Source of the DNA: Thermofilaceae archaeon
Lineage (GTDB): Archaea > Thermoproteota > Thermoprotei > Thermofilales > Thermofilaceae
Reading direction: 5' to 3'
Length of the DNA stretch: 17,164 nucleotides
Assembly: GCA_038727095.1 (NCBI GenBank)
Contig: JAVYWK010000034.1
Span: 1-17,164 of the forward strand
Part shown: positions 1 through 17,164 of the stretch, piece after piece
Numbering within the stretch: position 1 is the first letter of the stretch
Layout: every line of letters starts with the position of its first letter
The notes under the pieces: model-generated
What the model saw: the letters and a program-made list of their open reading frames with translations, nothing else
Database searches by the model: none
What the model was told of the DNA's origin: nothing
Made by a program: the position numbers and the translations under genes

Positions 1-529
1 GCTCGTACGCGTGGGACAGGTAGAAGCCGTCGAGGTTCACCATGGCGGGGAGCAGCACCCCCTCGTCCTCGGCCACCCGGTAAGCTTGTATCACCATGTC
101 CATTGCTTCTTGCGCGCTCTCAGCCCAAAACTGTATCCAGCCGGCGTCCCTCACGGCGAAGGCGTCGTTGTGGTCGCACCAGATGCTCCATGGAGGGGCG
201 ATCGAGCGGTTCACAACGGCCATCACTATCGGTAGGCGCGCGCCGCCCGCCCAGAACACCATCTCACTCATGTAGAGAAGGCCCTGCGACGAGGTAGCCG
301 TGAACGTTCTGGCGCCACCCGCAGCCGCGCCGATGCAGGCAGCCATCGCGCTGTGCTCGGACTCAACGTTGATGAACCGGGCTTTCAGCTCCCCCTTCTC
401 GACGAGCTCGGCTATCTTCTCGACGATAGTCGTCTGCGGCGTGATCGGGTACGCTGCGACCACCTGCACCCTGGCCAGCTTGACGGCGAAAGCGACAGCC
501 TCGTTGCCCGAGACCACTACGCGCGGCAC
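1..529 (-). CDS. porA: Pyruvate/2-oxoacid:ferredoxin oxidoreductase alpha subunit (3' end beyond window)
   Basis: Not in the ORF track because it runs off the window. Manual translation from GTG at 529 gives [41 protein letters not shown]...[33 protein letters not shown]..., with the PorA motifs YPITP, ESEHSA and TATSSQGL. It follows the gamma and delta subunits. Confidence 0.95.
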
Positions 530-533
530 AATC

Positions 534-794
534 TCACCCCTCCTCCACCATCGTGATGGCCTTGGTGGGGCACTCGCGGGCGCAGATACCGCAACCCTTG
601 CAATAGTCGTAGTCGATGGCGACGCTGTCGTCCTCGCCCCTCACCACGGCCGCCTCGGGGCAGTAGAGCCAGCAGAGCAGGCACTTGACGCACCGGCTCT
701 GATCCAGCACCGGCCGCTCCGTCCTCCACGAGCCCGTGAGGCCGGCTGAGCCCTTCACGGGCGAAGCTACCGAAGTCAGAGGTAGGCTAGCCAA
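534..794 (-). CDS. porD: 2-oxoacid:ferredoxin oxidoreductase delta subunit (2x[4Fe-4S] ferredoxin)
   Basis: [10 protein letters not shown] motif followed by two CxxCxxCxxxCP motifs ([24 protein letters not shown]). Lies between the gamma and alpha genes and overlaps gamma by 8 nt. Confidence 0.95.
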
Positions 795-1332
795 CTCCCC
801 TCACCTCCTCGTGCGCCCTCTCTGCCGCCTCCGCGTTGAGCTCACCGAGCCTCCCGCCCCACGTGCTCTTTATGGCCTCCTTCACCGATTCCAGGGAGAT
901 TAGAGGCCACACCCTGGTCAAAGCCCCCAGCATGGCCGTGTTAACGACGGGCCAGCCGGCCACTACCAGCCCCAATCCCTTCGCAATCGCGGTTGCGTCC
1001 ACCCAGTAGACGCGTTTAACGGGGACCTCGGGCCTTGAGGGCGCGTTCGCGAGGAGCATACCATCGTCTTTGACCTTAAACGGGATCGACCTGAGGAGCG
1101 CCCTATCGAGGACGACGAGGATGTCCGGCTCGCTAATCTGGCTCCTCAACCGGACGGGTTTATCGGAGATCCTGGCGAAGGAGTAGACCGGCGCCCCCCT
1201 CCTCTCCCCGCCGAAGAGCGGAACAGCCTGCCCGTGCAAGCCCTCTGCTGCCGCCGCGTGGACTAGCAGGCGCGCCGCTACGACGGCGCCTTGCCCTCCC
1301 CGGGCGTAGAAGCAGATCTCCTGAAGCATCAT
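787..1332 (-). CDS. porG: 2-oxoacid:ferredoxin oxidoreductase gamma subunit
   Basis: ARGGQGAV, FGGERRGAPV and VNTAMLGAL motifs of the PorG/PorC gamma family; first gene of the gamma-delta-alpha operon. Confidence 0.93.
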   Translation of the reverse strand: MMLQEICFYARGGQGAVVAARLLVHAAAAEGLHGQAVPLFGGERRGAPVYSFARISDKPVRLRSQISEPDILVVLDRALLRSIPFKVKDDGMLLANAPSRPEVPVKRVYWVDATAIAKGLGLVVAGWPVVNTAMLGALTRVWPLISLESVKEAIKSTWGGRLGELNAEAAERAHEEVRGVG

Positions 1333-1351
1333 GCTCGAGAGGAGAGCCAGA

Positions 1352-1360
1352 CTTAATAAG
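1352..1360. promoter_or_regulatory. Putative shared TATA element for the divergent por operon and acd
   Basis: CTTAATAAG is the main AT-rich element in the short intergenic gap. It lies about 20-30 nt from both the porG start (1332/1329, minus) and the in-frame GTG at 1385 (plus), matching archaeal leaderless promoter spacing. Confidence 0.5.
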
Positions 1361-1384
1361 GTAAACTAGTGGCATTTGTTTAAC

Positions 1385-3490
1385 GTGGCAAGCGGAGGTT
1401 TAGCTGCATTCCTTAAGCCCGGCAGCGTAGCTGTTGTAGGTGCTTCTAGAGAACCCTCGAAGATAGGGCACAGAGTTCTACGCAACATCCTTTCCTCCGG
1501 TTTCCGGGGTCGGGTTTACGCGGTGAATCCTAATGCTTCGGAGATTCTGGGTGTGAAGTGTTACCCGAGTATCCTGGATGTCCCGGAGCCTGTTGACCTC
1601 GCTGTGGTTACTGTGCCGGCGAAGCTCGTACCCCAGGTGGTCGAGGAGTGCGGGAGGAAGGGTGTGAAAGCGGTAGCCGTCATCTCCAGCGGATTCAAGG
1701 AGGTGGGGAACATCGAGCTCGAGAAACAACTCGTCGAAACAGCAAGGAAACACGGAATCCGAATCCTCGGACCCAACATCGTCGGCGTCTGGGATACCTC
1801 CACGCCCATAAACTACAGCTTCATTGACGCGTCCCCGCTCCCCGGTTCCATAGCCTTCCTGTCGCAGAGCGGGGCTCTGATAACGTCGTTAATCTGGTGG
1901 ACGAGGGAGAGGGGTATCGGGTTCTCCAGCCTCGTGAGCTTGGGGAACAAAGCGGACGTGGGGGAGAGCGACCTCCTCGCCCTACTGAGGGAGGATCCGC
2001 GGACCAAGGTGATCGCAATCTACATGGAGGGGTTGAACCCCGGTGAGGGGAGGCGCTTCCTCAAGGAAGCGGCGAAGACCACCGCCGTTAAACCCATCGT
2101 GGTTTTAAAGGCTGGAAGGACGGAGGCAGCGGCCGAAGCGATAAGGTCCCACACCGGCTCCCTGGCGGGCTCCGATGAAGTGTACGATGCGGCTTTCCGG
2201 CAGGCGCGCGTGCTCAGGGCTGGAAGCCTAGCCGAGCTGTTCAACTGGGCCCTAGCTCTAGCCCTCTCCCCTCCGCCCACCGACGGATCGGTGGTCGTCC
2301 TCACCCACGGCGGCGGCGCGGGCGTGCTGGCGGCCGACGAGCTCGGTGAAGCGGGAATCGAGCTGGAACCGCTGCCGCCCGACCTGCAGGAGAGGGTGAG
2401 GAAGTTCATGCCCCCCTTCGGCAGCTCGCGCAACCCAGTCGACCTCACTGGCATGATGACGGGTGAGAGCTTGAGAGGGGCTCTCACCGAGCTGCTCAAG
2501 GACGACAGGGTTGGGAGCGTGCTCGTCTGGGCGGGCCAGGGCGCGCTACCAACCCCCGAGGAGCTTCGAGACGCCGTGCTCTCGGCCGTTAGGGAGGCGG
2601 GGTTGAGGAAGCCGCTCGTCGTGTCGCTCACGGGGGGAGCTGAGTGCGATGCAGCGCTCAAAGACCTCATAGCTGCGGGCGTGCCAAGCTACGAGTCGCC
2701 CGAGATCGCCGCTCGCTCCCTAGCGGCCGTCCTGAGGTACTACAGGTTCAAGGCTCCGCCGGCCGGGAAGGTTGAGGTGGAGGGGGATAGGAGCGCGGCG
2801 GGCGAGATCATCGCCAGGGCGGTGAGCGAGGGGCGGAGGCTCCTAACGCCGATGGAGGCTTTCCGCGTGGCTAGAGCTTTCGGGATCCCGGTCGTGGAGG
2901 CGAGGTTCGCCCGAAGCGTTGAAGAAGCCATCGAAGCTGCGAGAACCATCGGCTATCCCGTTGCGCTCGCCGTCGAGACGCCCGACGTAGCTCACAAGAC
3001 GGAGGTCGGCGGCATACTCTTGAACATAGGCTCGGACGAGGAGCTGCGCGAAGCTTACGCGAGGGTGCTCCGGACCTTCGCTGAGAGAGCCCACGGAGCC
3101 CGGCTGCTGGGGGTTTCGGTCAGAAAGATGATGCCCCCAGGGGTTGAGGTCTTCATCGGGGCGAAGCGCGACCCGATCTTCGGGACGGTCGTAGCCTTCG
3201 GCTGGGGCGGCATCGCCGTGGAGCTCATCAGGGACGTGTCGATCCGCGTTGCTCCGCTAAGCGTGAGAGAGGCGGAGGAGATGGTGCTCGAAACGAAGGT
3301 AGGGAAGCTCCTCCACGGCTACAGGGGGGCGCCCCTGGATACCGGCACCGTAATTGGGCTGATACCAAGCGAAGCGGGGATACTCGAGACCTTTGACGTT
3401 GTGGAAGCCGTCGACGTTAACCCGATCTACGTTTACGCGAGGGGGGCCGTTGCGGTTGACGTAAAAATCTACCTCAAGGCTTCACCCTGA
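1385..3490 (+). CDS. acd: ADP-forming acetate/acyl-CoA ligase, fused alpha+beta (ACD)
   Basis: CoA-binding VAVVGASREPSKIG, ILGPN, SLGNKAD, phospho-His motif SHTGSLAG and NPVDLTG. C-terminal ATP-grasp beta domain with HKTEVGG, GAKRDPIFG and DVNP. Start is GTG 1385 or TTG 1376. Confidence 0.93.
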   Translation: MASGGLAAFLKPGSVAVVGASREPSKIGHRVLRNILSSGFRGRVYAVNPNASEILGVKCYPSILDVPEPVDLAVVTVPAKLVPQVVEECGRKGVKAVAVISSGFKEVGNIELEKQLVETARKHGIRILGPNIVGVWDTSTPINYSFIDASPLPGSIAFLSQSGALITSLIWWTRERGIGFSSLVSLGNKADVGESDLLALLREDPRTKVIAIYMEGLNPGEGRRFLKEAAKTTAVKPIVVLKAGRTEAAAEAIRSHTGSLAGSDEVYDAAFRQARVLRAGSLAELFNWALALALSPPPTDGSVVVLTHGGGAGVLAADELGEAGIELEPLPPDLQERVRKFMPPFGSSRNPVDLTGMMTGESLRGALTELLKDDRVGSVLVWAGQGALPTPEELRDAVLSAVREAGLRKPLVVSLTGGAECDAALKDLIAAGVPSYESPEIAARSLAAVLRYYRFKAPPAGKVEVEGDRSAAGEIIARAVSEGRRLLTPMEAFRVARAFGIPVVEARFARSVEEAIEAARTIGYPVALAVETPDVAHKTEVGGILLNIGSDEELREAYARVLRTFAERAHGARLLGVSVRKMMPPGVEVFIGAKRDPIFGTVVAFGWGGIAVELIRDVSIRVAPLSVREAEEMVLETKVGKLLHGYRGAPLDTGTVIGLIPSEAGILETFDVVEAVDVNPIYVYARGAVAVDVKIYLKASP

Positions 3491-3507
3491 AGTTTCTAGC
3501 GTCTTTT

Positions 3508-4182
3508 TCACAGCGATCCGAAAACGTTCGCGAGCGCCAGGATTGCCAGCGAGACGAGGGGTACAGTTATGTTGTCGTCTAGGGGTTTCAGCTCAAAGTG
3601 CTCAACGACGCTCGACGCAAGCCCGGCCAACGCCCCCCAGAGGCCAGCATAAACGTAGCCAATGGGGATGCAGACGGCAGCCATCGCAGCGTTGCCGGCC
3701 CAAGCCTTCGTCCTCCTCCTGTAAATCATGTTTCTCACGACGCCTGTGACGGAGTCGCCGAAGGACATGAAGGCTGTTGGAACAACTGCGTAAATCAGCG
3801 TGCCGAACAGCAGCCAGCTGAGTAGTAGGCTGAGGCCCCAAGTGACGCAGAAGTGAACCTCGTAGATGTTCTCCGGGTCCTGGAACCAGTAGAGCAGCTT
3901 ACCAGTCCTATGCGGTAGGTAGGTGAAAACGGCCAGTATCATCGCGAACACGAAAGGCACGAAGGGCGTCTGAAACAGGTACGGCGCGAGCAGGGCTACA
4001 ACTCCACCCGCGCCGACGTGGATGATCTTCCTGTTGTAGTAGATCGCGACGTTGTGGGTCAACCCCTTCGAGCGCATCGCATCGTACGTTTTCTTCGTGA
4101 GGAGGGTCACTAGGAAAACTATCCAGATGAACAGCACGGCGGCGTACATCAGCTCCACAGGTCTGAATAGCTCGGCTGTCAC
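3508..4182 (-). CDS. Dolichol/phytol kinase-like integral membrane protein (cytidylyltransferase family)
   Basis: Multiple hydrophobic segments with RKIIH, FGDSVTGVV, K-x-W-x-G and DDNITVP motifs typical of the dolichol kinase/CTP_transf_1 family. Confidence 0.75.
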   Translation of the reverse strand: MTAELFRPVELMYAAVLFIWIVFLVTLLTKKTYDAMRSKGLTHNVAIYYNRKIIHVGAGGVVALLAPYLFQTPFVPFVFAMILAVFTYLPHRTGKLLYWFQDPENIYEVHFCVTWGLSLLLSWLLFGTLIYAVVPTAFMSFGDSVTGVVRNMIYRRRTKAWAGNAAMAAVCIPIGYVYAGLWGALAGLASSVVEHFELKPLDDNITVPLVSLAILALANVFGSL

Positions 4183-4224
4183 GATTGGCTCTGTTTTTAG
4201 CCGTAAAAAAGGGATGCTATCGCC

Positions 4225-9633
<5,409 letters not shown>

Positions 9634-9692
9634 GTCTCAGCGGGGCACAAGAGGCAAAAAAGCGTTTACACTCAAACCTTCCACTCTAGTCC

Positions 9693-10217
9693 CTACGCCT
9701 GGGTAAAGCGAATGGATAGACTAGCAGCCTCGCCCGCCGAAACCCACGATGGAACTAAGATTTCAACCCCCAGTACTGCGCACTCCCCGGGCTCCAGATC
9801 GAGCGGCCTACTCGAGGTTAAGAGGGGAAGCGAGAGCACAAGGCTGCTTTCCCCTACCCTCCTAGCCAGCCGTAAATTGAACACGCTGGGCCACCCATCC
9901 CCCGGCACATCAGCTACTTCGAGCCTAAGGGTGAGCTTTCGATTACCGATGTTGCAGACGCGCAGTAGATCGCTGTAGCTCGTGGGAGACCCGATGAAGC
10001 CGGTGAGCGCGACTACCGTCCCGTTGGCTGCCTCGGCGACAGAAGCGTAGACTCCATCAGCGTCTTCACCCGCCTCTACGATGAGGAAGCTAGCCAGCTC
10101 TTCCTGCGTCAATCCCTCTACCCGTCCCACGATGAGCAGAGCGGAGGCTATCACCGTTATGATGAGAAGCGCGGTAACCGCTATCCTCCGCCTAGGATTT
10201 CCCATAATTCCACGCAA
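9693..10217 (-). CDS. Hypothetical exported/membrane-anchored protein
   Basis: Basic N-terminus (PRRR) followed by a hydrophobic helix and a beta-rich remainder; fills the gap between co-oriented genes. Start is TTG 10217 or ATG 10205. Confidence 0.7.
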   Translation of the reverse strand: MRGIMGNPRRRIAVTALLIITVIASALLIVGRVEGLTQEELASFLIVEAGEDADGVYASVAEAANGTVVALTGFIGSPTSYSDLLRVCNIGNRKLTLRLEVADVPGDGWPSVFNLRLARRVGESSLVLSLPLLTSSRPLDLEPGECAVLGVEILVPSWVSAGEAASLSIRFTQA

Positions 10218-10262
10218 ACAACTTGTTTTCCAACCTTAAAAACGGTGTAGTTCTACGGGGCT

Positions 10263-11168
10263 TCAAGTGCCGTCCACCTCTACGCGGTACACTTCCTCAA
10301 CTTTCCACTCGAGCTGCCGGTGGTAGCTCGGGTGGGGCTGGAACTCCCTCGCTCTCGACAGCCAGTCCGGTAACCCTACGGCCTTTATCCTGGCCGGGTC
10401 GATGCAGCCGTACCCCCACTCCGACAGGTGGTGTAGGTAGCCAATGTTTCGCGGATCAAACCCCATGAGGGCGGCTGCAGCCGCGTCAACCGTGACAGCG
10501 TTTCTCCCGCCGACCGATACGCCGAGTTTCACCGGGGTTCCATTGGTGGGGCCGGCCCCCTCCATCCCCACGGCTCCATCGATGAGAGCCAGCTTCGGCA
10601 TCATCTTCGTCGCCAGGTAGGCGATGTTGAGGTTGATCGCCGGGTAACCCTGGTGGATCTTGTGCCTGTCACCGGGCATGATCGCTCCGACAACGACGTT
10701 CTTGATCGAGAGCGTGACGATGACCGTGTCGTGAGTCTTCGGCCTCACCACCGAGACGAGGTACCTGCTCTTCAGCACGGTCTCCGAAACCCTGACCCGA
10801 ACCCTCCGCTCCAAGTTCCGGTCCCAGACGTAGAACTCCTCGTAGCTGTCGCCCGAGAGGTCGACCAGCTCGACGCCGTAGTCGAGGAGCCTGTCGTACC
10901 CGAAGTTCCTGATTGCATCCTTGAAGCTACCTATCGTAGGGGCCTCCGCAACTAAAACCCTGCACCTTCCGGCAAGCTTCTTCGCAATCTCCTCCACCGC
11001 TTCCACTGGTGTGGCGGAGAGCTCGCGGTAGGCGGAGACGAAGTTGACTTTGACGAGGATCTCACCGGCCTTCAGCGCATCCTCAAGCCCCATCAGGTCG
11101 AGCACGCGCCTAACTCCTACGCCTGGCTCCCCACCCTCCGCAGCGTAGATTTCGCATGACACAGTCAT
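10263..11168 (-). CDS. DUF362 domain-containing protein
   Basis: ILVKVNFV, RPKTHDTVIVTLSIKN, IDGAVGMEGAGP and NAVTVDAAAAALMGFDP..IGYL, typical of DUF362; no C-terminal ferredoxin domain. Confidence 0.85.
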   Translation of the reverse strand: MTVSCEIYAAEGGEPGVGVRRVLDLMGLEDALKAGEILVKVNFVSAYRELSATPVEAVEEIAKKLAGRCRVLVAEAPTIGSFKDAIRNFGYDRLLDYGVELVDLSGDSYEEFYVWDRNLERRVRVRVSETVLKSRYLVSVVRPKTHDTVIVTLSIKNVVVGAIMPGDRHKIHQGYPAINLNIAYLATKMMPKLALIDGAVGMEGAGPTNGTPVKLGVSVGGRNAVTVDAAAAALMGFDPRNIGYLHHLSEWGYGCIDPARIKAVGLPDWLSRAREFQPHPSYHRQLEWKVEEVYRVEVDGT

Positions 11169-11186
11169 TGGGGCAGGCCCGGACTT

Positions 11187-12881
11187 TTAACCCTTTAGGG
11201 GGGCTACGATTACCGGTGCCCCGTCAACCTCCAGCTCGAGCTCGCCCCCGATCGCTTCGACGACCTCCCGGAGGCCCAAGGTTCGTATGACGAGCGCGCG
11301 CTGGCTGCCTAAGCTCAGCTTCACAGTCCTCGCGGGACCCGAAGTCCAGACCACCAGCCTCATCTCCTCCCCCCTCTGGAGCACGAGCAGGTATGCTCCC
11401 TCACCCAGCGCGCGGGCCTCCTTGGGCGCGTAGCCGGCAAGCTCCCGGTTGAAGTTGTAGATGGCGTAGTAGGCAGGCTTGATGAAGAACCACTCGGGCC
11501 CCCTCACGTGGTGGGCTACGAGGCCGAAGTTGTGCTCCGAGTCGGCGAGCGAGAGCCCGTCGTCCTTCCAGTCGTAGATTATCGTTAAAGGGATGCCCGC
11601 CATCAAGTTGGTGAGGTAGATCCTCAGCGAGTAGTGGGCCTGCGTAACCACGTCGACCCGGTTCGCGTAGGCCCCGCCCGTCGTGTAGCCCCACTCGCTG
11701 CACACGATCGTTTTGTCCCCTACGATGCTCCGGAGCCTCTCGTAGTCGGTCAAAACGGTCTCCGGGGGCCCACCCCTGTAGGGGTGCACCGAGACCGCGT
11801 CGACGAGCTCGAGCGCACCCCTCACCGCAAGGGCTCTGACGAACTCCACGTCAACGCCGGAGGTCGCCGGCGCCAGGACGAGGCAGCCGGGGCAGGACTC
11901 CTTAATCACTCTCGAAGCTGCCGCGAGCAGCCGGGCGTAATCCGGTGCGCTGGGTTGAGGCTTCCAGAAGACTTCGATGTTAGGCTCGTTCCAAACCTCC
12001 CAGAGCGCGTAAGCACCGTACCTAGAGGCGGCGGCCCCAGCGTAGCTCGCGTAAGCGGACCTAGCCTCCTCGCTGCGCGGCGGCTGCCCACCATCGTAGA
12101 GCGGGTTCCCGTAGCAGAGGATGTAGAGGGGCCGCAGCCCCCGCTCCTTGAGAGCAGAGGTTAGAGCGTCGTAGCCGGAGAAGTCGTAAGCACCCCTCTC
12201 CCTCTCCACGGTGCTCCAGAAGAGGTCCATCCTGATCAGCTTGAAGCCGGCGTAGGCGATCATGTCGAGGTCCCTCAGCTCGAAGGGCGAAGGCGCGATG
12301 AAGTGGATGTTGACGCCGAGCCCCTCCGGGACGATGAGGCGGGGTAGGCCGCCCTCGGGCGCTTCCCACCGGACGGGTTCGTCGAGCACTGCCAGCAGCC
12401 AGGGGTAAGAATCTAGGTTCGTCCGCCTGAAGGGCTCCGTGTTTGAATCGAACTCTCCGACCCCCACCACCCTCAGCGCAGCGCGGTAGAGAGCTGGCTC
12501 GAGGCTTGCGGTGTCAACTTCGAACCAGAGCCGCGTCACCCGCCGGGCTGGAGCAGCACCCTCGCCGACCTTCAGCAGCTGTTGAGGCTTGTCGAGCGGG
12601 GCCAGGAGGAGCTCCACTTTCAAGTAGCTATCGTTGGGGTTGTTAACCTCAAACTCGAAGGCTGCTAGCTCGCCTCGTCGGAAGAAGTTCCTCTTCATCA
12701 ACGGGTCGGGGTAGAGCTGGAAGTTGCCCGCGCAACCTTCATGAGTGATCCTGACGTAGAACCTCTGCTCACCCACACCCTTCGCCCGCTGCTCCGGGCG
12801 GAAAAGCATCATCGCTGCTAGAGCTGCCGCAGCTACGAGCAGAGCAAAGGCGATTACGGCTAGCCGCCTACTGTGAAGCAC
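11187..12881 (-). CDS. Exported/membrane-anchored clan GH-A glycoside hydrolase (GH5/GH39-like)
   Basis: N-terminal signal/anchor helix and an Ig-like beta region, then GVNIHF, IRMDLFWSTVE, WEVWNEPN (acid/base), VSVHPYR, CSEWGY (nucleophile), IYDWKDDG and NFGL. Confidence 0.85.
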   Translation of the reverse strand: MLHSRRLAVIAFALLVAAAALAAMMLFRPEQRAKGVGEQRFYVRITHEGCAGNFQLYPDPLMKRNFFRRGELAAFEFEVNNPNDSYLKVELLLAPLDKPQQLLKVGEGAAPARRVTRLWFEVDTASLEPALYRAALRVVGVGEFDSNTEPFRRTNLDSYPWLLAVLDEPVRWEAPEGGLPRLIVPEGLGVNIHFIAPSPFELRDLDMIAYAGFKLIRMDLFWSTVERERGAYDFSGYDALTSALKERGLRPLYILCYGNPLYDGGQPPRSEEARSAYASYAGAAASRYGAYALWEVWNEPNIEVFWKPQPSAPDYARLLAAASRVIKESCPGCLVLAPATSGVDVEFVRALAVRGALELVDAVSVHPYRGGPPETVLTDYERLRSIVGDKTIVCSEWGYTTGGAYANRVDVVTQAHYSLRIYLTNLMAGIPLTIIYDWKDDGLSLADSEHNFGLVAHHVRGPEWFFIKPAYYAIYNFNRELAGYAPKEARALGEGAYLLVLQRGEEMRLVVWTSGPARTVKLSLGSQRALVIRTLGLREVVEAIGGELELEVDGAPVIVAPLKG

Positions 12882-12901
12882 AAGAAAAAGAAAGTAGGAA
12901 T

Positions 12902-12924
12902 GGATAAATTTTTAGGATAAATTT
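12902..12924. repeat. 10-bp direct repeat GGATAAATTT x2 (tandem TATA-like) upstream of the glycosidase gene
   Basis: GGATAAATTT at 12902-12911 and 12915-12924. On the minus strand this reads AAATTTATCC, with the proximal copy about 22-30 nt before the GTG at 12881. Confidence 0.6.
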
Positions 12925-14032
12925 AGAGGCTGCCTTTGAGCGACCTCAGGAATGCGATTCTCTTCGGTATCGGCGGGTGGGTTGCGAAGAGCTCTTCGAG
13001 GCTGACGAAGGGGTCTGCTAGGGCGTAGATGAAGAGCATCTTCATCTTGCTGCTGTCCACTCTCGCCTTTGCGGTTCTGTACCTGCTGTAGAACGAGTCG
13101 AGAGCCTGGAGGGCTCCGATCATCGCGTCCGGTGACGTCACTTTTGCCCCGTGGGCGTCAGCGTAGTGCTCTCTCAGCCTCGAGAGCGCTAGAACGACCA
13201 GCTGCATGATGACGCTGACCACCATCAACGCGATGCCAGCGAGAACCAGGATGAAGCCCCCTCCCTCACTCTTCCTGTTGCCGTCGTAGCGGTAGCGCGA
13301 CGCGTAGAAGCCTGCGTAAGTCAGGTAGCGGCCGAGGAAGTAGATGACGGAGGGCACGAGGCCGAAGAGCAGCATGACCACGTTGTCCCTGTGCTTGTGG
13401 TGGCCCAGCTCGTGTCCGATGACTGCCTCGAGCTCCGGCCCCCTAGCGATCTGAAGCAGCCCCTCGGTTACCGCCACGTACCTGCCGAAGAGTGGAGAGG
13501 AGTAGGCGAAGGCGTTCGGTTCCTTCATCCTGGTCGCGATCATCGCCTTCGGCGGCTTCATGCCCGACTGGGCGGCGAGCCTATCCACGATCTGCTGGAG
13601 GACCGGGTCGGGCTTGCACCCGTAAATCAGGTTGATGAGAGCCGGCGACAGGAGCCAGGAGAAGAGGGAGGGGATGAGCGCGAAGAGGAGCGCCACGGTC
13701 ATCAGCTGCATCGTGAGCTCTTCACCCAGCAGCGAGGAGAGCCCGGCGAAGACGAGCAGGGCACCCCCGAGTACTCCGGCCATCGTGGCGAGCATAGCTG
13801 CCCTCAGCGCGTCAAGGCTCGGGGGCGTCGGGGCGAGGTACCTGCCGAAAAGGCCCGCAGCCGCGATGAGGGTGGTCATCGAGATCGCGTAGGCCACCAA
13901 GTCGACCAGCCACCAGCCCGCATAGGGAGTGTAGAAGGCCGGTGCAAACCACGAGAGAGCGACCTGCAAGATTAGCATCACGATCGCTGCCACAGCGAAC
14001 AGCGCGAGCAGGAGCAAGAGTTTCTCCCTCAT
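12923..14032 (-). CDS. htpX: Zinc metalloprotease HtpX (peptidase M48)
   Basis: PNAFAY, VAVTEGLL, HELGH (HExxH), LSRLREHYAD and ELFATHPP..RI, with multiple TM helices. Start is ATG 14032 (GGAGTGA upstream) or ATG 14050. Confidence 0.93.
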   Translation of the reverse strand: MREKLLLLLALFAVAAIVMLILQVALSWFAPAFYTPYAGWWLVDLVAYAISMTTLIAAAGLFGRYLAPTPPSLDALRAAMLATMAGVLGGALLVFAGLSSLLGEELTMQLMTVALLFALIPSLFSWLLSPALINLIYGCKPDPVLQQIVDRLAAQSGMKPPKAMIATRMKEPNAFAYSSPLFGRYVAVTEGLLQIARGPELEAVIGHELGHHKHRDNVVMLLFGLVPSVIYFLGRYLTYAGFYASRYRYDGNRKSEGGGFILVLAGIALMVVSVIMQLVVLALSRLREHYADAHGAKVTSPDAMIGALQALDSFYSRYRTAKARVDSSKMKMLFIYALADPFVSLEELFATHPPIPKRIAFLRSLKGSL

Positions 14033-14187
14033 ACCATCACTCCGTAACATCCGTTCCCACAAGGGGGGTAAAAAGTTTCTGTACGAATGGTTCGCTACCC
14101 CCTAAACCAAAAGGGGGCTCCGCTCGAGCGCGCCCCCGGCTCCGGCGGCGCGCGGCGCTTAAATGGCTCCACTGCCTGCTCGTACCG

Positions 14188-15285
14188 ATGGCCTCAGCGC
14201 CTGCGAGTTTAATCGTCACGTGCAAGCTTGGGATGGAGAGGGTCGTCGCTTCATACGTCAGGGAGCTGGACCCAAACGCCACTGTTACGCCGGCTCCCGA
14301 GGGGTTCCTCGGACTCGTGCTCGTGGAGGGTGCGAGCGACCCCGCGAGGCTGTACGATGAGATCAAGCGGAGCGTACCTGAGGCTGAGAGGGTCTATCTG
14401 GCTGAGTGCGCGTGCGAAGCGTCCGTAGCGTCGATCGTGGAGTGCGCGAAGCAGTTGGCCGGGAAAATTCGAGCCGAGGAGAGCTTCGCCGTCTCCACGG
14501 TGAGGAGGGGGGAGCACAGCTTCACGTCGCTGGACGTGAACGTCGCGGTGGGCAGCGCTGTGAAGGAGCTGACGGGTGCGAGGGTGGACCTCGAGAACCC
14601 CGACAAGGTTCTCGTCGTCCAGATCATCAAGGATCGAGCCTACCTATCACTAGTCCCCGGCAGCGAGTTTCACAGGAAGATGGGGCCGGGCAAGTACCCG
14701 ATGTACCGTGTCTTCAGGAAGCTCGTCGTCGCCCACGAGCCCTACCTCGGGCCGCCGGACGCGGCGTACGTGATGGGGACGAGGATCGGGAGGGAGGTGC
14801 AGGTCTTCGAGGTGGGGAAGCTGTACGTCACACCGATCGGGCCCGTCGAGGCCCAACCCCTCTACCACTTCCTGAGGGGCCTCTTCGAGGGGTTGAGGAG
14901 CCGGTACGAGCTGCAGAAGAGGAGCTACGGCCGCGAGGTGCACCGCACTCAAGTCTACGTGCAGGACCTGCACCAGTTCCTCCGGTCGAGGATGGGAGCC
15001 CCTCTCATCATCTGCGAGCCTGAGGGCGAGCCCGTGTCCAGGGTAGCGGATGAGCTAGCGGACTTCTTGCTGGGCAACGTGAAGAGGGGGAGGGAGGTAG
15101 CCTTGATGGTTGGAGCAAGGGAGGGCATCCCGACTGGCCTCTTCCGCTACGCCGACTACGTTGTCGACCTGGCCCCGGGCGTAGTCATCTCGACGGAGTA
15201 CGCCCTGTCTTCGGCCCTCATCGCCCTCGCAACGATCACGCACGAGAAGCTGGTGAGCGAAGCAACCGAGCAGCCGCACAGCTGA
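14188..15285 (+). CDS. THUMP-domain + SPOUT-fold RNA methyltransferase (TrmTS-like)
   Basis: N-terminal THUMP (SFAVSTVRRG..FTSLDVNVAVG...VDLENPDKV) and C-terminal SPOUT knot (MVGAREGIP...ADYVVDLAPG..ISTEYA). Start set at ATG 14188, about 25 nt after CTTAAAT (14158-14164); the track's 13942 start overlaps htpX. Confidence 0.85.
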   Translation: MASAPASLIVTCKLGMERVVASYVRELDPNATVTPAPEGFLGLVLVEGASDPARLYDEIKRSVPEAERVYLAECACEASVASIVECAKQLAGKIRAEESFAVSTVRRGEHSFTSLDVNVAVGSAVKELTGARVDLENPDKVLVVQIIKDRAYLSLVPGSEFHRKMGPGKYPMYRVFRKLVVAHEPYLGPPDAAYVMGTRIGREVQVFEVGKLYVTPIGPVEAQPLYHFLRGLFEGLRSRYELQKRSYGREVHRTQVYVQDLHQFLRSRMGAPLIICEPEGEPVSRVADELADFLLGNVKRGREVALMVGAREGIPTGLFRYADYVVDLAPGVVISTEYALSSALIALATITHEKLVSEATEQPHS

Positions 15286-15316
15286 GAAGAGCGGCTAAAT
15301 CAGGGCATCTTGTGGT

Positions 15317-15334
15317 CGAAAGATACATTTTAAA
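15317..15334 (+). promoter_or_regulatory. BRE/TATA promoter of the membrane-protein gene
   Basis: CGAAAGA followed by TTTTAAA (15328-15334), ending 25 nt before ATG 15359 (leaderless geometry). Confidence 0.55.
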
Positions 15335-15358
15335 GCTGGAAAGCCTCTCATCAAGACA

Positions 15359-15823
15359 ATGGGAGCCGCCTGGGTGCCCCGGCTAATCGCATTGTTGGGG
15401 CTGCTAGCTCTCGTCCACTCGCTCACGAGGCCTTGGGCCTCGGTGAGGGTCATCGCCTTGAGGCTCGACTACAAGCCCTGGGAGCTGCTCGAGCAGATGG
15501 CGCGGGGCAAGTGGGACCTCGTAAACGAGCTGCTCCGGGTTGCTGAGGAGATCCCGGAAGGCGCGCGCTTCGTCTCGCTCTTCACCCTGCACATCGCCTT
15601 CCTAGTGATCGCCCTCCTCCTCGGCTTCCTCTCCATCATCGGGAACTCAGCTGGCGGCTACGCTTCAACGGCCGTTTTCTCCACACTCTCTGTCGCTGTT
15701 CTCGTCTACACCCTTGAGCAGGCGCAGCTGCTCAGCTTCTCGATCGGTTCAGGGGCTCTCCTCTCGATAGGCGCCGCCTTCGTGTACGTCTTGTCCGCTC
15801 TGGCGGCGAGGAGCTTCAAGTAG
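15359..15823 (+). CDS. Hypothetical membrane protein (~4 TM helices)
   Basis: 154 aa with four hydrophobic segments and its own TATA box. Confidence 0.75.
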   Translation: MGAAWVPRLIALLGLLALVHSLTRPWASVRVIALRLDYKPWELLEQMARGKWDLVNELLRVAEEIPEGARFVSLFTLHIAFLVIALLLGFLSIIGNSAGGYASTAVFSTLSVAVLVYTLEQAQLLSFSIGSGALLSIGAAFVYVLSALAARSFK

Positions 15824-15828
15824 GCTGA

Positions 15829-16179
15829 TCAGTTCTCCGAAATCCTATCGAGGAGGTGCAGGACCAGCCCCAGCCGGGGCTTCGGCTTTGTTATGGCGCA
15901 GACCACCCTCCCCCTTACGGGTTTAACAACCATCAACCTGCCATCGGATAGGGCGACGGTCACCCTCTCCACTCCGACGCTAAAGTAGACCCGGAAGGCC
16001 TCATCGACGCCCGCCGCTAATGCTGCACCGAGCGCCGCCAGCATGTTGGAGAACCCGTTCGCACCGTTCTCCTCCAGCAGGATACCGTCCTCGCTCGCGG
16101 ACACTGCAACCTCAATCTCCCCCCTGCTCTCCTCAACCAGCTTCTTCACACCGTCCTGCCGCAAATACTGGCTGCTCAT
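15829..16179 (-). CDS. Roadblock/LC7 (MglB-like) domain protein
   Basis: About 116 aa with pattern 'IEVAVSASEDGILL...LAALGAAL...VERVTVALSDGRLMVVKPV..VVCAITKPKPRLGLVLHLL'. ATG 16179 is preferred over GTG 16200 given the minus-strand TTTTAA at 16213-16218. Confidence 0.8.
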   Translation of the reverse strand: MSSQYLRQDGVKKLVEESRGEIEVAVSASEDGILLEENGANGFSNMLAALGAALAAGVDEAFRVYFSVGVERVTVALSDGRLMVVKPVRGRVVCAITKPKPRLGLVLHLLDRISEN

Positions 16180-16432
16180 CGCGCAACCGAAGACTGTCAC
16201 CTCGAGCCATCGTTAAAAAACATTTAGTTCAGCATCGCCTAAAGCCATCGTAGCTACAGGCTGTATGTCCAAGACATGATAAAAAATCTCGGTGTGCGCG
16301 TTCTGTAATGTCATTGACATGATGAATCGCGCTGCCCTCGAGCCGGAGCCGAGGAAATACTGTCAGAGACATTACATCGCCTAACTTTCCGAACTACGGA
16401 GTTCTGGGCGAAAATGGAGAATCCGAGACATT

Positions 16433-16768
16433 TCATCTGAGATGGGGGGAACATTGACGCTGGGATTCCCCATGGAGCATTTGGAGTAAACAGAGTATCG
16501 CTTTGAGGAGCTCGGGGTAGCGCCCCGCTCCGCGCGCGATGTCGAAGAGCGCTAAGATCGTCAGCGCCCGCTCGAGGTAGAGCTTGTCCGATGCCAGCTT
16601 GCGGCCCAAGGCGAATTCCAACCTCCCGGGATTTTCAAGGGGGTGTGGCAGGTTCAGCTTCCGGTAGAGGTCCGCCACGCTGATGCCTAGCGAAAGCCGG
16701 AGCGCTTCCTCCAGTCGCTCGGCGTCGACATCCTCAAACAGCCGGAGCGGGTTCGGTTCCGCGCCGGG
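16433..16768 (-). pseudogene. Small helical hypothetical protein, apparently 5'-truncated
   Basis: The frame of track ORF 16433-16678 stays open 30 more codons (PGAEPNPLRLFEDVDAERLEEALRLSLGIS) up to an in-frame TGA at 16769-16771, with no ATG/GTG/TTG in the extension. The extension looks protein-like and abuts the GC-rich element. Confidence 0.45.
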
Positions 16769-17044
16769 TCATTCCCCCCTTCATGGGCTTTGGCCTCTGA
16801 GGGCCCGCCCCACGGCCTCCCCAGCCTTTCGGCCGTGGACGACCGGGGCGGGCGTCATGGGGTCGGCCGCTCAAGGGCGGCCTACTCGCCCGCCTTTCCG
16901 CGCCCCGTCACCGGAGCGCATCCCGGCGGGGTCGAGATGCCCCTCGGTCTGCGCGCGGAAGCCCCCGGGCACAGCGCCGGGTTTCCCCGGCAGCGTCCCG
17001 GGAACGGGGCCTGGAACGAGGCTTAGGCTGCCCATCCCGGGGGC
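16766..17044 (-). ncRNA. High-GC structured RNA, candidate TnpB omegaRNA / IS200-605-607 right end
   Basis: About 77% GC over 16801-17040 (manual count 185/240). Helices: GCCGGG-GAAA-CCCGGC (16976-16991, GNRA loop only on minus), 16803-16811/16845-16853, 16810-16817/16831-16838, 16865-16870/16877-16882 and 16903-16907/16927-16931. No credible ORF. The family assignment is inference. Confidence 0.55.
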
Positions 17045-17053
17045 CTAGGCCCC
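17040..17053. repeat. Perfect 14-bp palindrome GGGGCCTAGGCCCC containing the stop codon of the edge ORF
   Basis: Directly visible; the minus-strand TAG (17045-17047) is at its centre. Confidence 0.85.
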
Positions 17054-17164
17054 AGGGGTTGGTGGTGCAGCGAACTTAGGTGGTGGCGCTGAGCCTAGGA
17101 GATCCGTGGGGTGGTTGCGCAACCACCCCCGAAGCTCGCTGACCAGCCACGGTAGCCCCCCAGC
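17045..17164 (-). CDS. C-terminal fragment of an unidentified ORF entering from beyond the window
   Basis: Open frame from the window edge: AGGLPWLVSELRGWLRNHPTDLLGSAPPPKFAAPPTPGA-stop (TAG 17045-17047). Too short to assign. Confidence 0.4.
   Translation of the reverse strand, partial: AGGLPWLVSELRGWLRNHPTDLLGSAPPPKFAAPPTPGA
17108..17129. repeat. Perfect 22-bp palindrome GGGGTGGTTGCGCAACCACCCC
   Basis: Directly visible: the two 11-nt halves are exact reverse complements. Confidence 0.9.

Follow-up and report, generated by a model that had tools for sequence, protein, structure and literature searches.

The stretch of Thermofilaceae archaeon DNA that we analysed (the window, 17,164 nt) ends inside a copy of an element that is cut by the contig end, and the features of this copy are all read on the minus strand. 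The outermost is the tail of a TnpB-like ORF, which comprises its last 39 codons (17048..17164) and a TAG stop codon (17045-17047) and is 100% identical to residues 447-485 of a 485-aa ORF in the same genome (reference ORF, G000:C38:4716-6170, within a reference element copy of 3141 nt at C38:7556-4416). The stop codon is followed by a variable linker (17009..17044) that can be aligned among the closest copies only and then, 37 nt past the stop codon, by a conserved structured RNA module of ~250 nt (16756..17008); this omegaRNA-like scaffold makes up the element's right end. The preliminary description had placed the start of the RNA at 17044, directly behind the stop codon; its conserved core begins instead at ~17008, and the linker is mostly deleted in the copy from genome G020 and lies outside the covariance-model hit. 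Beyond the element comes flanking DNA, in which 16736..16755 would be the guide segment if the system is TnpB-omegaRNA-like, by analogy with characterised TnpB systems. This flank is part of an open host reading frame, which runs from 16753 to its stop codon at 16433-16435, and a Pfam search of the host ORF beside the insertion returned nothing.

The GC content of 16766-17044, which had been put at ~77%, is 75.3%, compared with 62.2% for 1-16755 and 57.7% for the adjacent 16300-16755. On either strand of the GC-rich region, ORFs as long as 121 aa are possible, as expected for GC-rich DNA, and the earlier judgement that none is credible is upheld by a comparison of two element copies, in which there is no third-position bias. 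Identity between two copies is 82-93% in the RNA region, which is above the 67-89% of the real adjoining ORF. A match to a known RNA had been named as a way in which the initial reading might fail, and no Rfam family matched when the whole window was searched at the gathering score. A search of 16400-17164 at E <= 10 gave only chance-level matches (SNORD48, COG3860, Spi-1 and anti-hemB; E 0.17-3), and the full C38 element likewise gave chance-level matches only. No tRNA or tmRNA was found in the window. The rule that a GC-rich non-coding island in a hyperthermophile marks a structured RNA worked here.

The module contains 11 conserved helices with compensatory changes and many G-U pairs, and our covariance model of the family (R1) matches the window at 16755-17008 with 215 bits (E 1.1e-52). 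Helix 1 (16961..17005) pairs 17005-16997 with 16969-16961, and each of its 9 pairs has a double-sided change in one sequence or more. It encloses a variable hairpin tip, GCCGGG-GAAA-CCCGGC (16991-16976), in place of which other copies have other hairpins. The two GAAA hairpins described at the outset, this one and another at ~16822-16835, are both present in the MFE fold, and both are variable helix tips where other copies carry different hairpins. Next to helix 1 lies UUCCGCGC (16953..16960), the 5′ strand of a long-range closing helix whose 3′ strand is in the element terminus GGCGCGGAAC (16756..16765), which also contains the last base of the element. In the RNAalifold structure, 16957-16953 is paired to 16764-16760, and by eye the helix is prolonged to UUCC/GGAA. 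In the G018 copies, also by eye, the long-range helix is GCCGCGC/GCGCGGC, that is, U-A pairs are changed to G-C. The motif UCCGG-UGA-CGGGG, which had been proposed as a kink-turn, turned out to be the top of a 9-bp hairpin (16899..16920; 16920-16912 with 16907-16899; 6/9 pairs changed on both sides) with a GNRA tetraloop that reads GUGA here and GCGA in other copies. A K-turn consists of a C stem, a 3-nt bulge, tandem sheared G-A/A-G pairs and an NC stem, and this consensus is fitted by a kink-turn-like motif at 16777..16803, CCC-UCA-GA-[GGC CAAA GCC]-CAU-GA-A-GGG. The arrangement GA/GA with a 3-nt bulge occurs in 14/31 family RNAs and AA/GA in 6/31, and 11/31 have neither. By analogy, the module may be bound by L7Ae; in the titles and abstract openings that we searched, and in PMC12817955 as searched by term, we found no connection between L7Ae and TnpB. 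A sense RNA from the module would be expected to start near a CCCGUUCCC motif.

Covariation had been suggested as a check on the fold, and it supports the fold. In an alignment of 41 rows, which had been fitted to the model and so favours the structure, 90.5% of cells are paired, compared with 41.9-48.5% when the partners are slid. Double-sided changes occur in 36/59 pairs, compared with 14-27 in the slid controls, and the observed covariation values were reached by 0/500 shuffles. The minus strand was chosen because the ORF is co-directional, because G-U/U-G pairs are frequent (e.g., UG in 15, 15, and 19 rows of the family alignment at three pairs), and because high-score covariance hits occur on this strand only. 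The folding of single sequences barely tells the strands apart, since the minus-strand fold (-195.1 kcal/mol) has a z of -3.48 and the plus strand a z of -2.81. The strand originally assigned therefore stands on the ORF, the G-U pairs and the covariance model, and the single-sequence fold adds little to it.

The complete copies of the truncated ORF encode a protein of 485 aa that carries a zinc ribbon and is predicted to fold like TnpB/Cas12, which answers the question of whether a TnpB gene lies upstream of the RNA. The AF2 model of the protein (pLDDT 85.9, pTM 0.79) shows a WED barrel, a small helical REC, an RNase-H-like RuvC and a zinc-ribbon insertion, i.e., the TnpB/Cas12 architecture. 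The 43 matches listed by Foldseek against the PDB (ranks 1-50) are all Cas12, TnpB or Fanzor with probability 1.00, and the best match by VIA-align is 8h1j (ISDra2 TnpB-omegaRNA-DNA), with Z 12.8, rmsd 6.5 and 305 residues aligned over model residues 8-405. At the sequence level, phmmer with the single protein found nothing relevant among PDB sequences; only the family profile matched, and it found Fanzor2, TnpB and Cas12 at E ~1e-6. There was no usable NCBIfam match for the protein. For the C38 protein, which is 100% identical to the ORF tail in the window, PF01385 (OrfB_IS605) gave no match at E <= 1, and PF07282 gave 21.6-24.1 bits against a cut-off of 26.3. PF07282 scores 37.6 in the C3b paralog, and 12/17 family representatives are above its cut-off and 17/17 are matched at E <= 0.01; 1/17 more distant matches carries PF01385. 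The protein family is small, with 43 representatives at E <= 1e-30 among 1.84 billion.

The conserved columns of this family are D186 (VDxN), D311, Y-E-G, CPxC...CxxC and R389-D390, where residue numbers refer to the trimmed sequence (+48 for the full ORF). The RuvC-I Asp, D186 in V-D-x-N, is found in at least 90% of 29 sequences and lies on strand E180-188. The C4 zinc ribbon (C355, C358, C380, C383) is invariant (n=29), and the RuvC-III R389-D390, which begins helix 389-401 and is conserved in 90% or more of the sequences, aligns to the 'DRD' of TnpB. In the HMMER alignment to an ISDra2-like chain, a hydrophobic residue stands opposite the RuvC-II Glu of '...VED...', with a one-residue shift possible; the invariant D311 is opposite the Asp that follows this Glu, and a conserved Glu is found six residues downstream. 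Nuclease competence is uncertain as judged from sequence because the RuvC-II Glu position is hydrophobic.

The module is present in multiple copies, as the preliminary description had anticipated. The covariance model finds 8 copies in the source genome (G000), 5 behind TnpB-like ORFs and 3 in short ORF-less derivatives, and blastn of 16700-17164 against this genome finds full copies on C38 (89.6%) and C3 (82.5%) and partial copies on C3, C21, C41 and C1. What remains in the ORF-less derivatives is the left end together with the final ~170-200 nt of the RNA, and all of the ORF-less G000 copies that we examined carry the left end of the element. With strict filters, the model finds 21 and 6 copies in the related genomes G020 and G002, respectively, and matches in 3/41 genomes, a count that refers to one sub-type, since at this setting the model misses the shorter G018-type RNAs, which score 17.6-23.5 bits in a local search. 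G018 itself contains 13 matches to the protein. The position of the RNA behind the gene is fixed: its location and orientation are identical in the window, C38, C3a, C3b, C41 and the G020 copies, and its linkage to the gene is kept in the paralogs C3b and C41 at 30-35% protein identity. The G000 copies also bear an extra conserved 5′ non-coding stretch of ~1 kb. Four ORFs drawn in this 5′ non-coding part had no Pfam match, and folding of the 5′ region alone was uninformative. A search for related loci with the single protein confirmed no relative. A gapped motif scan of genome contigs was rejected as evidence on distribution: its 119 matches lay in unrelated GC-rich bacteria and were about as many as we estimate to arise by chance.

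The right end of the element is exact. All of the blastn matches begin at query base 53-59, which is window 16752-16758, and the flanks differ in 7/7 copies compared, straight after a common GGCGCGGAA(C/A) terminus. The terminus reads GGCGCGGAAC in six of these 7 copies and GGCGCGGAAA in the remaining one, from G020; in G018-type copies the counterpart of GGCGCGGAAC is GGCGCGGCC. The homology break that had been predicted at 16763-16766 is thus as sharp as expected, and it lies about 10 nt away, at 16755/16756. Likewise, the element does not end near 16766, as had been thought, and its actual end is 16756 (...GGCGCGGAAC), 10 nt further out. Contigs of the DNA metagenomes X1, X3 and X13 and of the RNA run X18 track the flank to 16755, and past this point those of X1, X3 and X13 all contain one identical unrelated sequence. 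This 30-nt sequence after 16755 is absent from the source assembly. From their sequence, the contigs diverging after 16755 look like the empty site, and the sequence of this putative empty site, by eye, leaves the host frame open. No clear shared TAM-like motif was seen in six aligned left-end flanks (five showing the left end); the assembly lacks the left end of the window copy.

In the metatranscriptome X18, contig depth is 130-721 over 16764-16908, 11.6 over the flank and 0 over the ORF tail, and in the DNA runs the element-to-flank depth ratio is ~4-10. The enrichment over the module in X18, whose RNA library may contain DNA, is a weak hint of expression, and contigs show no strand, ends or level. 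As for mobility, a Y1 TnpA (PF01797) was found in none of G000, G001, G002, G018 and G020, of which G000 is 92% complete and G018 is one contig and 99% complete, and a serine resolvase (PF00239) was not found in G000. The positive controls of the transposase search matched in 6 and 12 of 14 genomes.

We conclude that the GC-rich stretch is, with good probability, the omegaRNA-like right end of a mobile tnpB-only IS200/IS605-type OMEGA element of a hot-spring Thermofilaceae archaeon. The preliminary description had favored this reading, which is supported by the TnpB-fold ORF, the multi-copy status, the sharp boundary and the covariation; its alternative, a new ncRNA class, is unneeded now that the main reading is supported. 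By analogy, the nuclease encoded by the element would be a divergent, RNA-guided enzyme of the TnpB type, and the system is a further example of the already known TnpB-omegaRNA kind and not a new type of system. From the same analogy we infer that the omegaRNA-like module would be transcribed and processed, would bind the protein, and would use a guide and a TAM in cleavage. The tnpB-like transcript would run on into the ~250 nt scaffold (16756-17008, minus strand), which would fold into multiple helices with a long-range helix closing onto its own 3′ terminus, and the RNA most likely continues past the element into flanking DNA from 16755 downward. In the complex of TnpB and RNA, ~16-20 nt derived from the flank would act as the guide, and the complex would cut DNA that has the same sequence without the element. 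Such cutting of element-free DNA would aid the persistence and spread of the element, and the short ORF-less derivatives would provide extra guide RNAs that are used in trans.

Other explanations would give the RNA no function or a different setting. The right end could act as DNA only, as a site for an unidentified transposase, with the RNA being without function. The TnpA of IS200/IS605 elements reads subterminal hairpins on single-stranded DNA, and a sharply bounded transposon end that ORF-less derivatives keep, both strands of which fold well, would suit such a role, as would transcript evidence that consists of assembled contigs and not reads. However, known transposase-binding ends need far less than ~250 nt with 11 helices, and a module of this size with compensatory changes and many G-U pairs far exceeds what they require. 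In addition, the module stays linked to a protein that is folded like an RNA-guided nuclease, no TnpA is found in the five genomes searched, and metatranscriptome contigs are enriched over the module, so that we regard a DNA-only end as unlikely. It is harder still to believe in a new, free-standing class of structured ncRNA that only adjoins the gene, although the lack of an Rfam family match would fit it, because position, strand and gene linkage are kept across paralogs at 30-35% identity and three genomes and because all ORF-less G000 copies examined carry the left end of the element; we consider this explanation extremely improbable.

Two further explanations accept that the RNA is real and belongs to the gene. 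In one, it is not a guide but a 3′-UTR or sense-overlapping regulator of the stability or translation of the tnpB mRNA, a role originally put forward for the sotRNAs of archaeal IS1341-type genes. In characterised omegaRNAs the flank lies directly behind a closed scaffold, and here too the scaffold ends at the element boundary and its 5′ part pairs with the last 8 nt, which places the flank directly behind the closed scaffold. Moreover, the RNA is retained in ORF-less derivatives, where there is no mRNA for it to regulate. We therefore hold a purely regulatory role to be improbable, even though archaeal tnpB 3′-end sense ncRNAs were described as functional before the guide role was known (PMC4615843). 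In the other explanation, which we judge very unlikely, the protein derives from TnpB but is nuclease-dead or rearranged, and its RNA-guided DNA binding serves regulation and not cleavage. The hydrophobic residue at the RuvC-II Glu position in the HMMER alignment points in this direction, and inactivated, exapted TnpBs are known (PMC10691335). Against it, the protein retains the RuvC-I Asp, the invariant Asp at the end of beta-4, a conserved Glu six residues beyond that Asp, and the RuvC-III Arg-Asp, and these residues match a pattern that PMC10691335 treats as rearranged but probably active. Because it is multi-copy, has non-autonomous derivatives and shows apparent insertion polymorphism, the element also fits a selfish element and not a domesticated gene.

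The omegaRNA-like right end that we prefer has clear counterparts among TnpB-omegaRNA modules such as that of ISDra2 from Deinococcus radiodurans. Both have a compact protein of ~420-480 aa with WED, REC, RuvC and zinc ribbon and a structured sense RNA, located at the gene's 3′ end and terminating with the right end of the transposon, and both occur as tnpB-only elements with short non-autonomous derivatives. What differs here is a very divergent sequence, with PF01385 absent and PF07282 below cut-off in the C38 copy, and an apparent replacement of the canonical RuvC-II Glu. OmegaRNAs are usually shorter and overlap the ORF, whereas here the ~250 nt scaffold core begins after the stop codon with no overlap of the coding region. 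Further differences are that there is no TnpA in the five genomes searched and that the G000 copies have the extra ~1 kb 5′ non-coding stretch. Most IS200/IS605-superfamily elements carry tnpB alone (Altae-Tran et al. 2023, PMC10691335). The same paper describes RIIr clades that have lost the RuvC-II Glu, for which it proposes compensation by another Glu located on a nearby loop, and it reports that several RuvC-II-rearranged branches are almost exclusively archaeal. Our family resembles the RIIr groups in being hydrophobic at the Glu position and in having D311 and a Glu six residues later (P-x-x-E-S), but directly after the lost Glu it has an invariant Asp, where the main example of PMC10691335 has Gly.

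Among archaeal elements, there is a parallel with the IS1341-type tnpB genes of Halobacterium, whose sotRNAs are sense ncRNAs at the 3′ end (PMC4615843). The present RNA is likewise a sense ncRNA and occupies the 3′ end of a tnpB-only element from an archaeon, but it comes from another phylum (Thermoproteota), has a different sequence, and is supported by comparative structure and not by transcript mapping. Cas12f and other type V CRISPR proteins are among the best structural matches (9i8y, Z 12.6; 8dzj, Z 12.1). Unlike in type V CRISPR, however, the gene here is multi-copy and mobile and has no array: we found no tandem repeat in window 14000-17164, and each copy has a unique flank. We found no paper that names TnpB together with Thermofilum.

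Public records call members of this family 'hypothetical' or 'zinc ribbon domain' proteins, and the present analysis annotates them and adds a new RNA, since the module is absent from Rfam. It also provides a TnpB derived from a hyperthermophile for which the scaffold and the element end are defined and the guide position can be presumed, and a possible use of this TnpB is as a heat-stable compact editor or diagnostic enzyme. The family bears on whether TnpBs with a rearranged RuvC-II are active, and it offers a clean case for how tnpB-only elements spread where no TnpA is found. On this last point a bolder reading, which we put forward as speculative and unlikely, is that spread without TnpA, accompanied by ORF-less guide RNAs, is due either to an unknown transposase or to the TnpB-RNA complex itself driving the spread. 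In the boldest form of this reading, the kink-turn at 16803-16777 would, by analogy, bring L7Ae into the RNP as its third subunit, and the conserved ~1 kb 5′ stretch of the G000 copies would be a second functional RNA.

The right end of the contig carries a copy of a multi-copy mobile element in which a TnpB-like gene is followed by an omegaRNA-like module. Using positions 16700–17164 as a blastn query against the source genome (G000), we found copies at C38:4416–4832 (89.6% identity) and C3:56391–56811 (82.5%), with partial copies on contigs C3 (two), C21, C41, and C1. Every copy begins at query base 53–59, corresponding to window 16752–16758, and the best extend to the contig end. When four copies are aligned, identity continues through ...AUGACCCGGCGCGGAA(C/A) and is followed at once by unrelated sequence. 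This terminus is common to seven copies, each with a different flank, and reads GGCGCGGAAC in six of the seven and GGCGCGGAAA in the copy from a related genome, G020. In the window, the final element base is C16756. Contigs from three hot-spring DNA metagenomes (X1, X3, and X13) and one metatranscriptome (X18) match the flank to 16755, and they support the element end independently of the genome copies. Past 16755, the X1, X3, and X13 contigs share one identical unrelated sequence; the matches listed do not include the unmatched end of the X18 contig.

The flank contains a minus-strand ORF without a Pfam family at 16433–16755, open from 16753 and with its stop at 16433–16435, and the alternative sequence in the DNA-run contigs, read by eye, keeps this frame open upstream. 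Because the contigs leave the flank at 16755 and the host frame is kept open, we interpret the alternative sequence as a related strain's empty site; the window copy would then be an insertion that appears to have split a gene. A search of the G000 assembly did not find the alternative sequence. Upstream of the C38 copy lies a minus-strand reading frame (L008:7557–7926) with about 120 protein-like residues and two CxxC pairs, followed by low-complexity sequence inside the element; this is probably another gene truncated by insertion. At the G020 locus L023 (contig C3), an inverted right-end fragment of another element (L023:1597–1686) sits directly upstream of the left end of a full copy, which points to insertion beside or within a sister element. 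The feature in the window reaches the contig end and, since the window is all of contig C34 (17,164 bases), runs off the assembly. Four G000 contig ends interrupt element copies in this way (C34 end, C52 start, C25 end, and C41 start), so the repeat contributes to the fragmentation of the assembly, and the actual copy number may exceed our count.

The repeat follows a minus-strand TnpB-like ORF of 485 and 484 aa in the C38 and C3 copies, respectively, and window 17048–17164 is identical to its last 39 residues. Pfam gave a Cas12f1-like TNB (OrfB zinc-ribbon) match below threshold (21.6 bits versus a cut-off of 26.3), and a profile of 29 family members matched Fanzor2, TnpB, and Cas12 chains in the PDB at E about 1e-6. 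Structure prediction with AF2 gave a confident model (pLDDT 85.9, pTM 0.79) whose secondary-structure elements follow the order of an RNase-H/RuvC domain carrying an inserted zinc ribbon. Foldseek matches listed were all Cas12, TnpB, or Fanzor at probability 1.00, and the top VIA-align match was ISDra2 TnpB (8h1j, Z 12.8, 305 residues aligned). Conserved columns include D186 (V-D-x-N), D311, Y-E-G, C-P-x-C ... C-x-x-C, and R389-D390. A HMMER alignment with an ISDra2-like chain places a hydrophobic residue opposite the canonical RuvC-II Glu and the invariant Asp of the family opposite the next position. Altae-Tran et al. 2023 (PMC10691335) describe TnpB clades with rearranged RuvC-II, several almost exclusively archaeal, and propose that these stay active; the departure suggested by this alignment would be exactly the kind of rearrangement described for those clades.

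The protein occurs in 12 of the 41 related genomes searched (G000 included), and public records, which come from MAGs of Thermofilum or Thermofilaceae, name it "hypothetical protein" or "zinc ribbon domain-containing protein." Against 1.84 billion representative proteins, the profile found 298 matches at E ≤ 1e-3, 96 at 1e-10, and 43 at 1e-30; among 17 of these scanned with Pfam, all had PF07282 (12 above cut-off) and one had PF01385. Within the TnpB superfamily, the family forms a small and divergent branch. What is new is a divergent family of TnpB-like proteins with an omegaRNA-like module, and the kind of system is already known.

The region 16766–17044 is 75.3% GC versus 62.2% in the rest of the window. 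Rfam gave no match at gathering scores and only chance-level matches at E ≤ 10, and a tRNA search found none. Single-sequence folding gave similar z values for both strands (minus, −3.48; plus, −2.81) and so cannot distinguish them. A covariance model, R1, was built on the 59-pair RNAalifold consensus of 11 copies from G000 and G020. It matches eight copies in G000, five behind TnpB-like ORFs (C34, C38, two on C3, and C41) and three in short ORF-less elements (C21, C1, and C3:5827–6053). With strict filters, there are 21 copies in G020 and six in G002, giving matches in three of the 41 genomes; the RNAs that follow the G018 genes are shorter and get only weak scores. The structure is conserved: in 41 aligned matches, 90.5% of cells are paired versus 41.9–48.5% when partners are slid by 1–3 columns, double-sided changes affect 36 of the 59 pairs versus 14–27 in the slid controls, and none of 500 shuffles reached the observed values, the alignment having been fitted to the model, which biases it in the model's favor. 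Linkage of RNA and gene is kept in paralogs whose proteins are just 30–35% identical, and there the last ~170 nt of the RNA are still 70–82% identical.

The fold, the linkage, and the copies support the omegaRNA/TnpB reading of the preliminary description, whose boundaries (16766–17044) needed correction: the last base is C16756, and the conserved core begins near 17008 on the minus strand, 37 nt past the stop codon. In the consensus, a long-range minus-strand helix pairs 16957–16953 with 16764–16760; by eye it extends to UUCCGCGC/GCGCGGAA, and through it the scaffold closes on its final nucleotides. We infer transcription into the flank, guide use, and cleavage. In X18, contig depth is 130–721 over 16764–16908, 11.6 on the flank, and 0 on the ORF tail, a contrast that hints weakly at a stable RNA; in the DNA runs, the element-to-flank depth ratio is ~4–10 at contig level.

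Hairpin tips are variable, and both GAAA loops noted previously are present among them. The proposed kink-turn UCCGG-UGA-CGGGG is instead a 9-bp consensus hairpin with a GNRA (GUGA) cap (16920–16899, minus strand). A different candidate, CCC-UCA-GA-[GGC-CAAA-GCC]-CAU-GA-A-GGG (16803–16777, minus strand), agrees with the kink-turn consensus; its 3-nt bulge varies, and both GA dinucleotides are conserved. Of 31 family RNAs, 14 fit, six carry AA/GA, and the other 11 depart from the consensus. L7Ae may bind this candidate; our literature search found no published connection between L7Ae and TnpB RNAs.

The G000 reference copy (C38:7556–4416) is 3141 nt: a 5′ non-coding part of 1386 nt precedes the ORF, and ~300 nt of RNA region follow it. 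G020 copies are compact (~1.7 kb), and their left end lies ~140 nt upstream of the start codon. ORF-less derivatives of ~560 nt, in which the first ~360 nt are fused to the last ~170 nt, retain the left end and the last ~170–200 nt of the RNA; they lie at C21:15903–16459, C1:101751–102327, and C3:5827–6053 in G000, with many in G020, where there are 21 RNA matches versus just six protein matches. They resemble non-autonomous elements, and each could supply a guide RNA. A search of five genomes (G000, G001, G002, G018, and G020) found no Y1 TnpA, and a serine resolvase was likewise not found in G000. The elements look active in genomes where no TnpA was found. According to PMC10691335, tnpB-only elements are the common state in this superfamily. 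Six left-end flanks gave no readable TAM.

The 1.39-kb 5′ stretch of the C38 copy (L008:6171–7556, minus strand) has counterparts at C3:58176–59526, C3:13766–14737, C52:1–477, and C25:26975–27312. Across copies it is 87–100% identical over ~800 nt without third-position bias, the ORF being 67–89% identical; where the proteins of two elements share just 30% identity, the stretch still shares 90%. Two parts have 71–77% GC, resembling the 3′ RNA. It has no Rfam or Pfam match and was not found in the G020 copies fetched; G002, a sister genome, shares only the first ~370 nt. The stretch may be another RNA or a module that was exchanged recently. An ORF of 74–80 aa without a Pfam match runs antisense to tnpB in the left-end region (L008:7163–7387, plus strand); it is open in four copies (L008, C3a, C3b, and C52) with mostly conservative changes and may be a chance product of GC-rich DNA.
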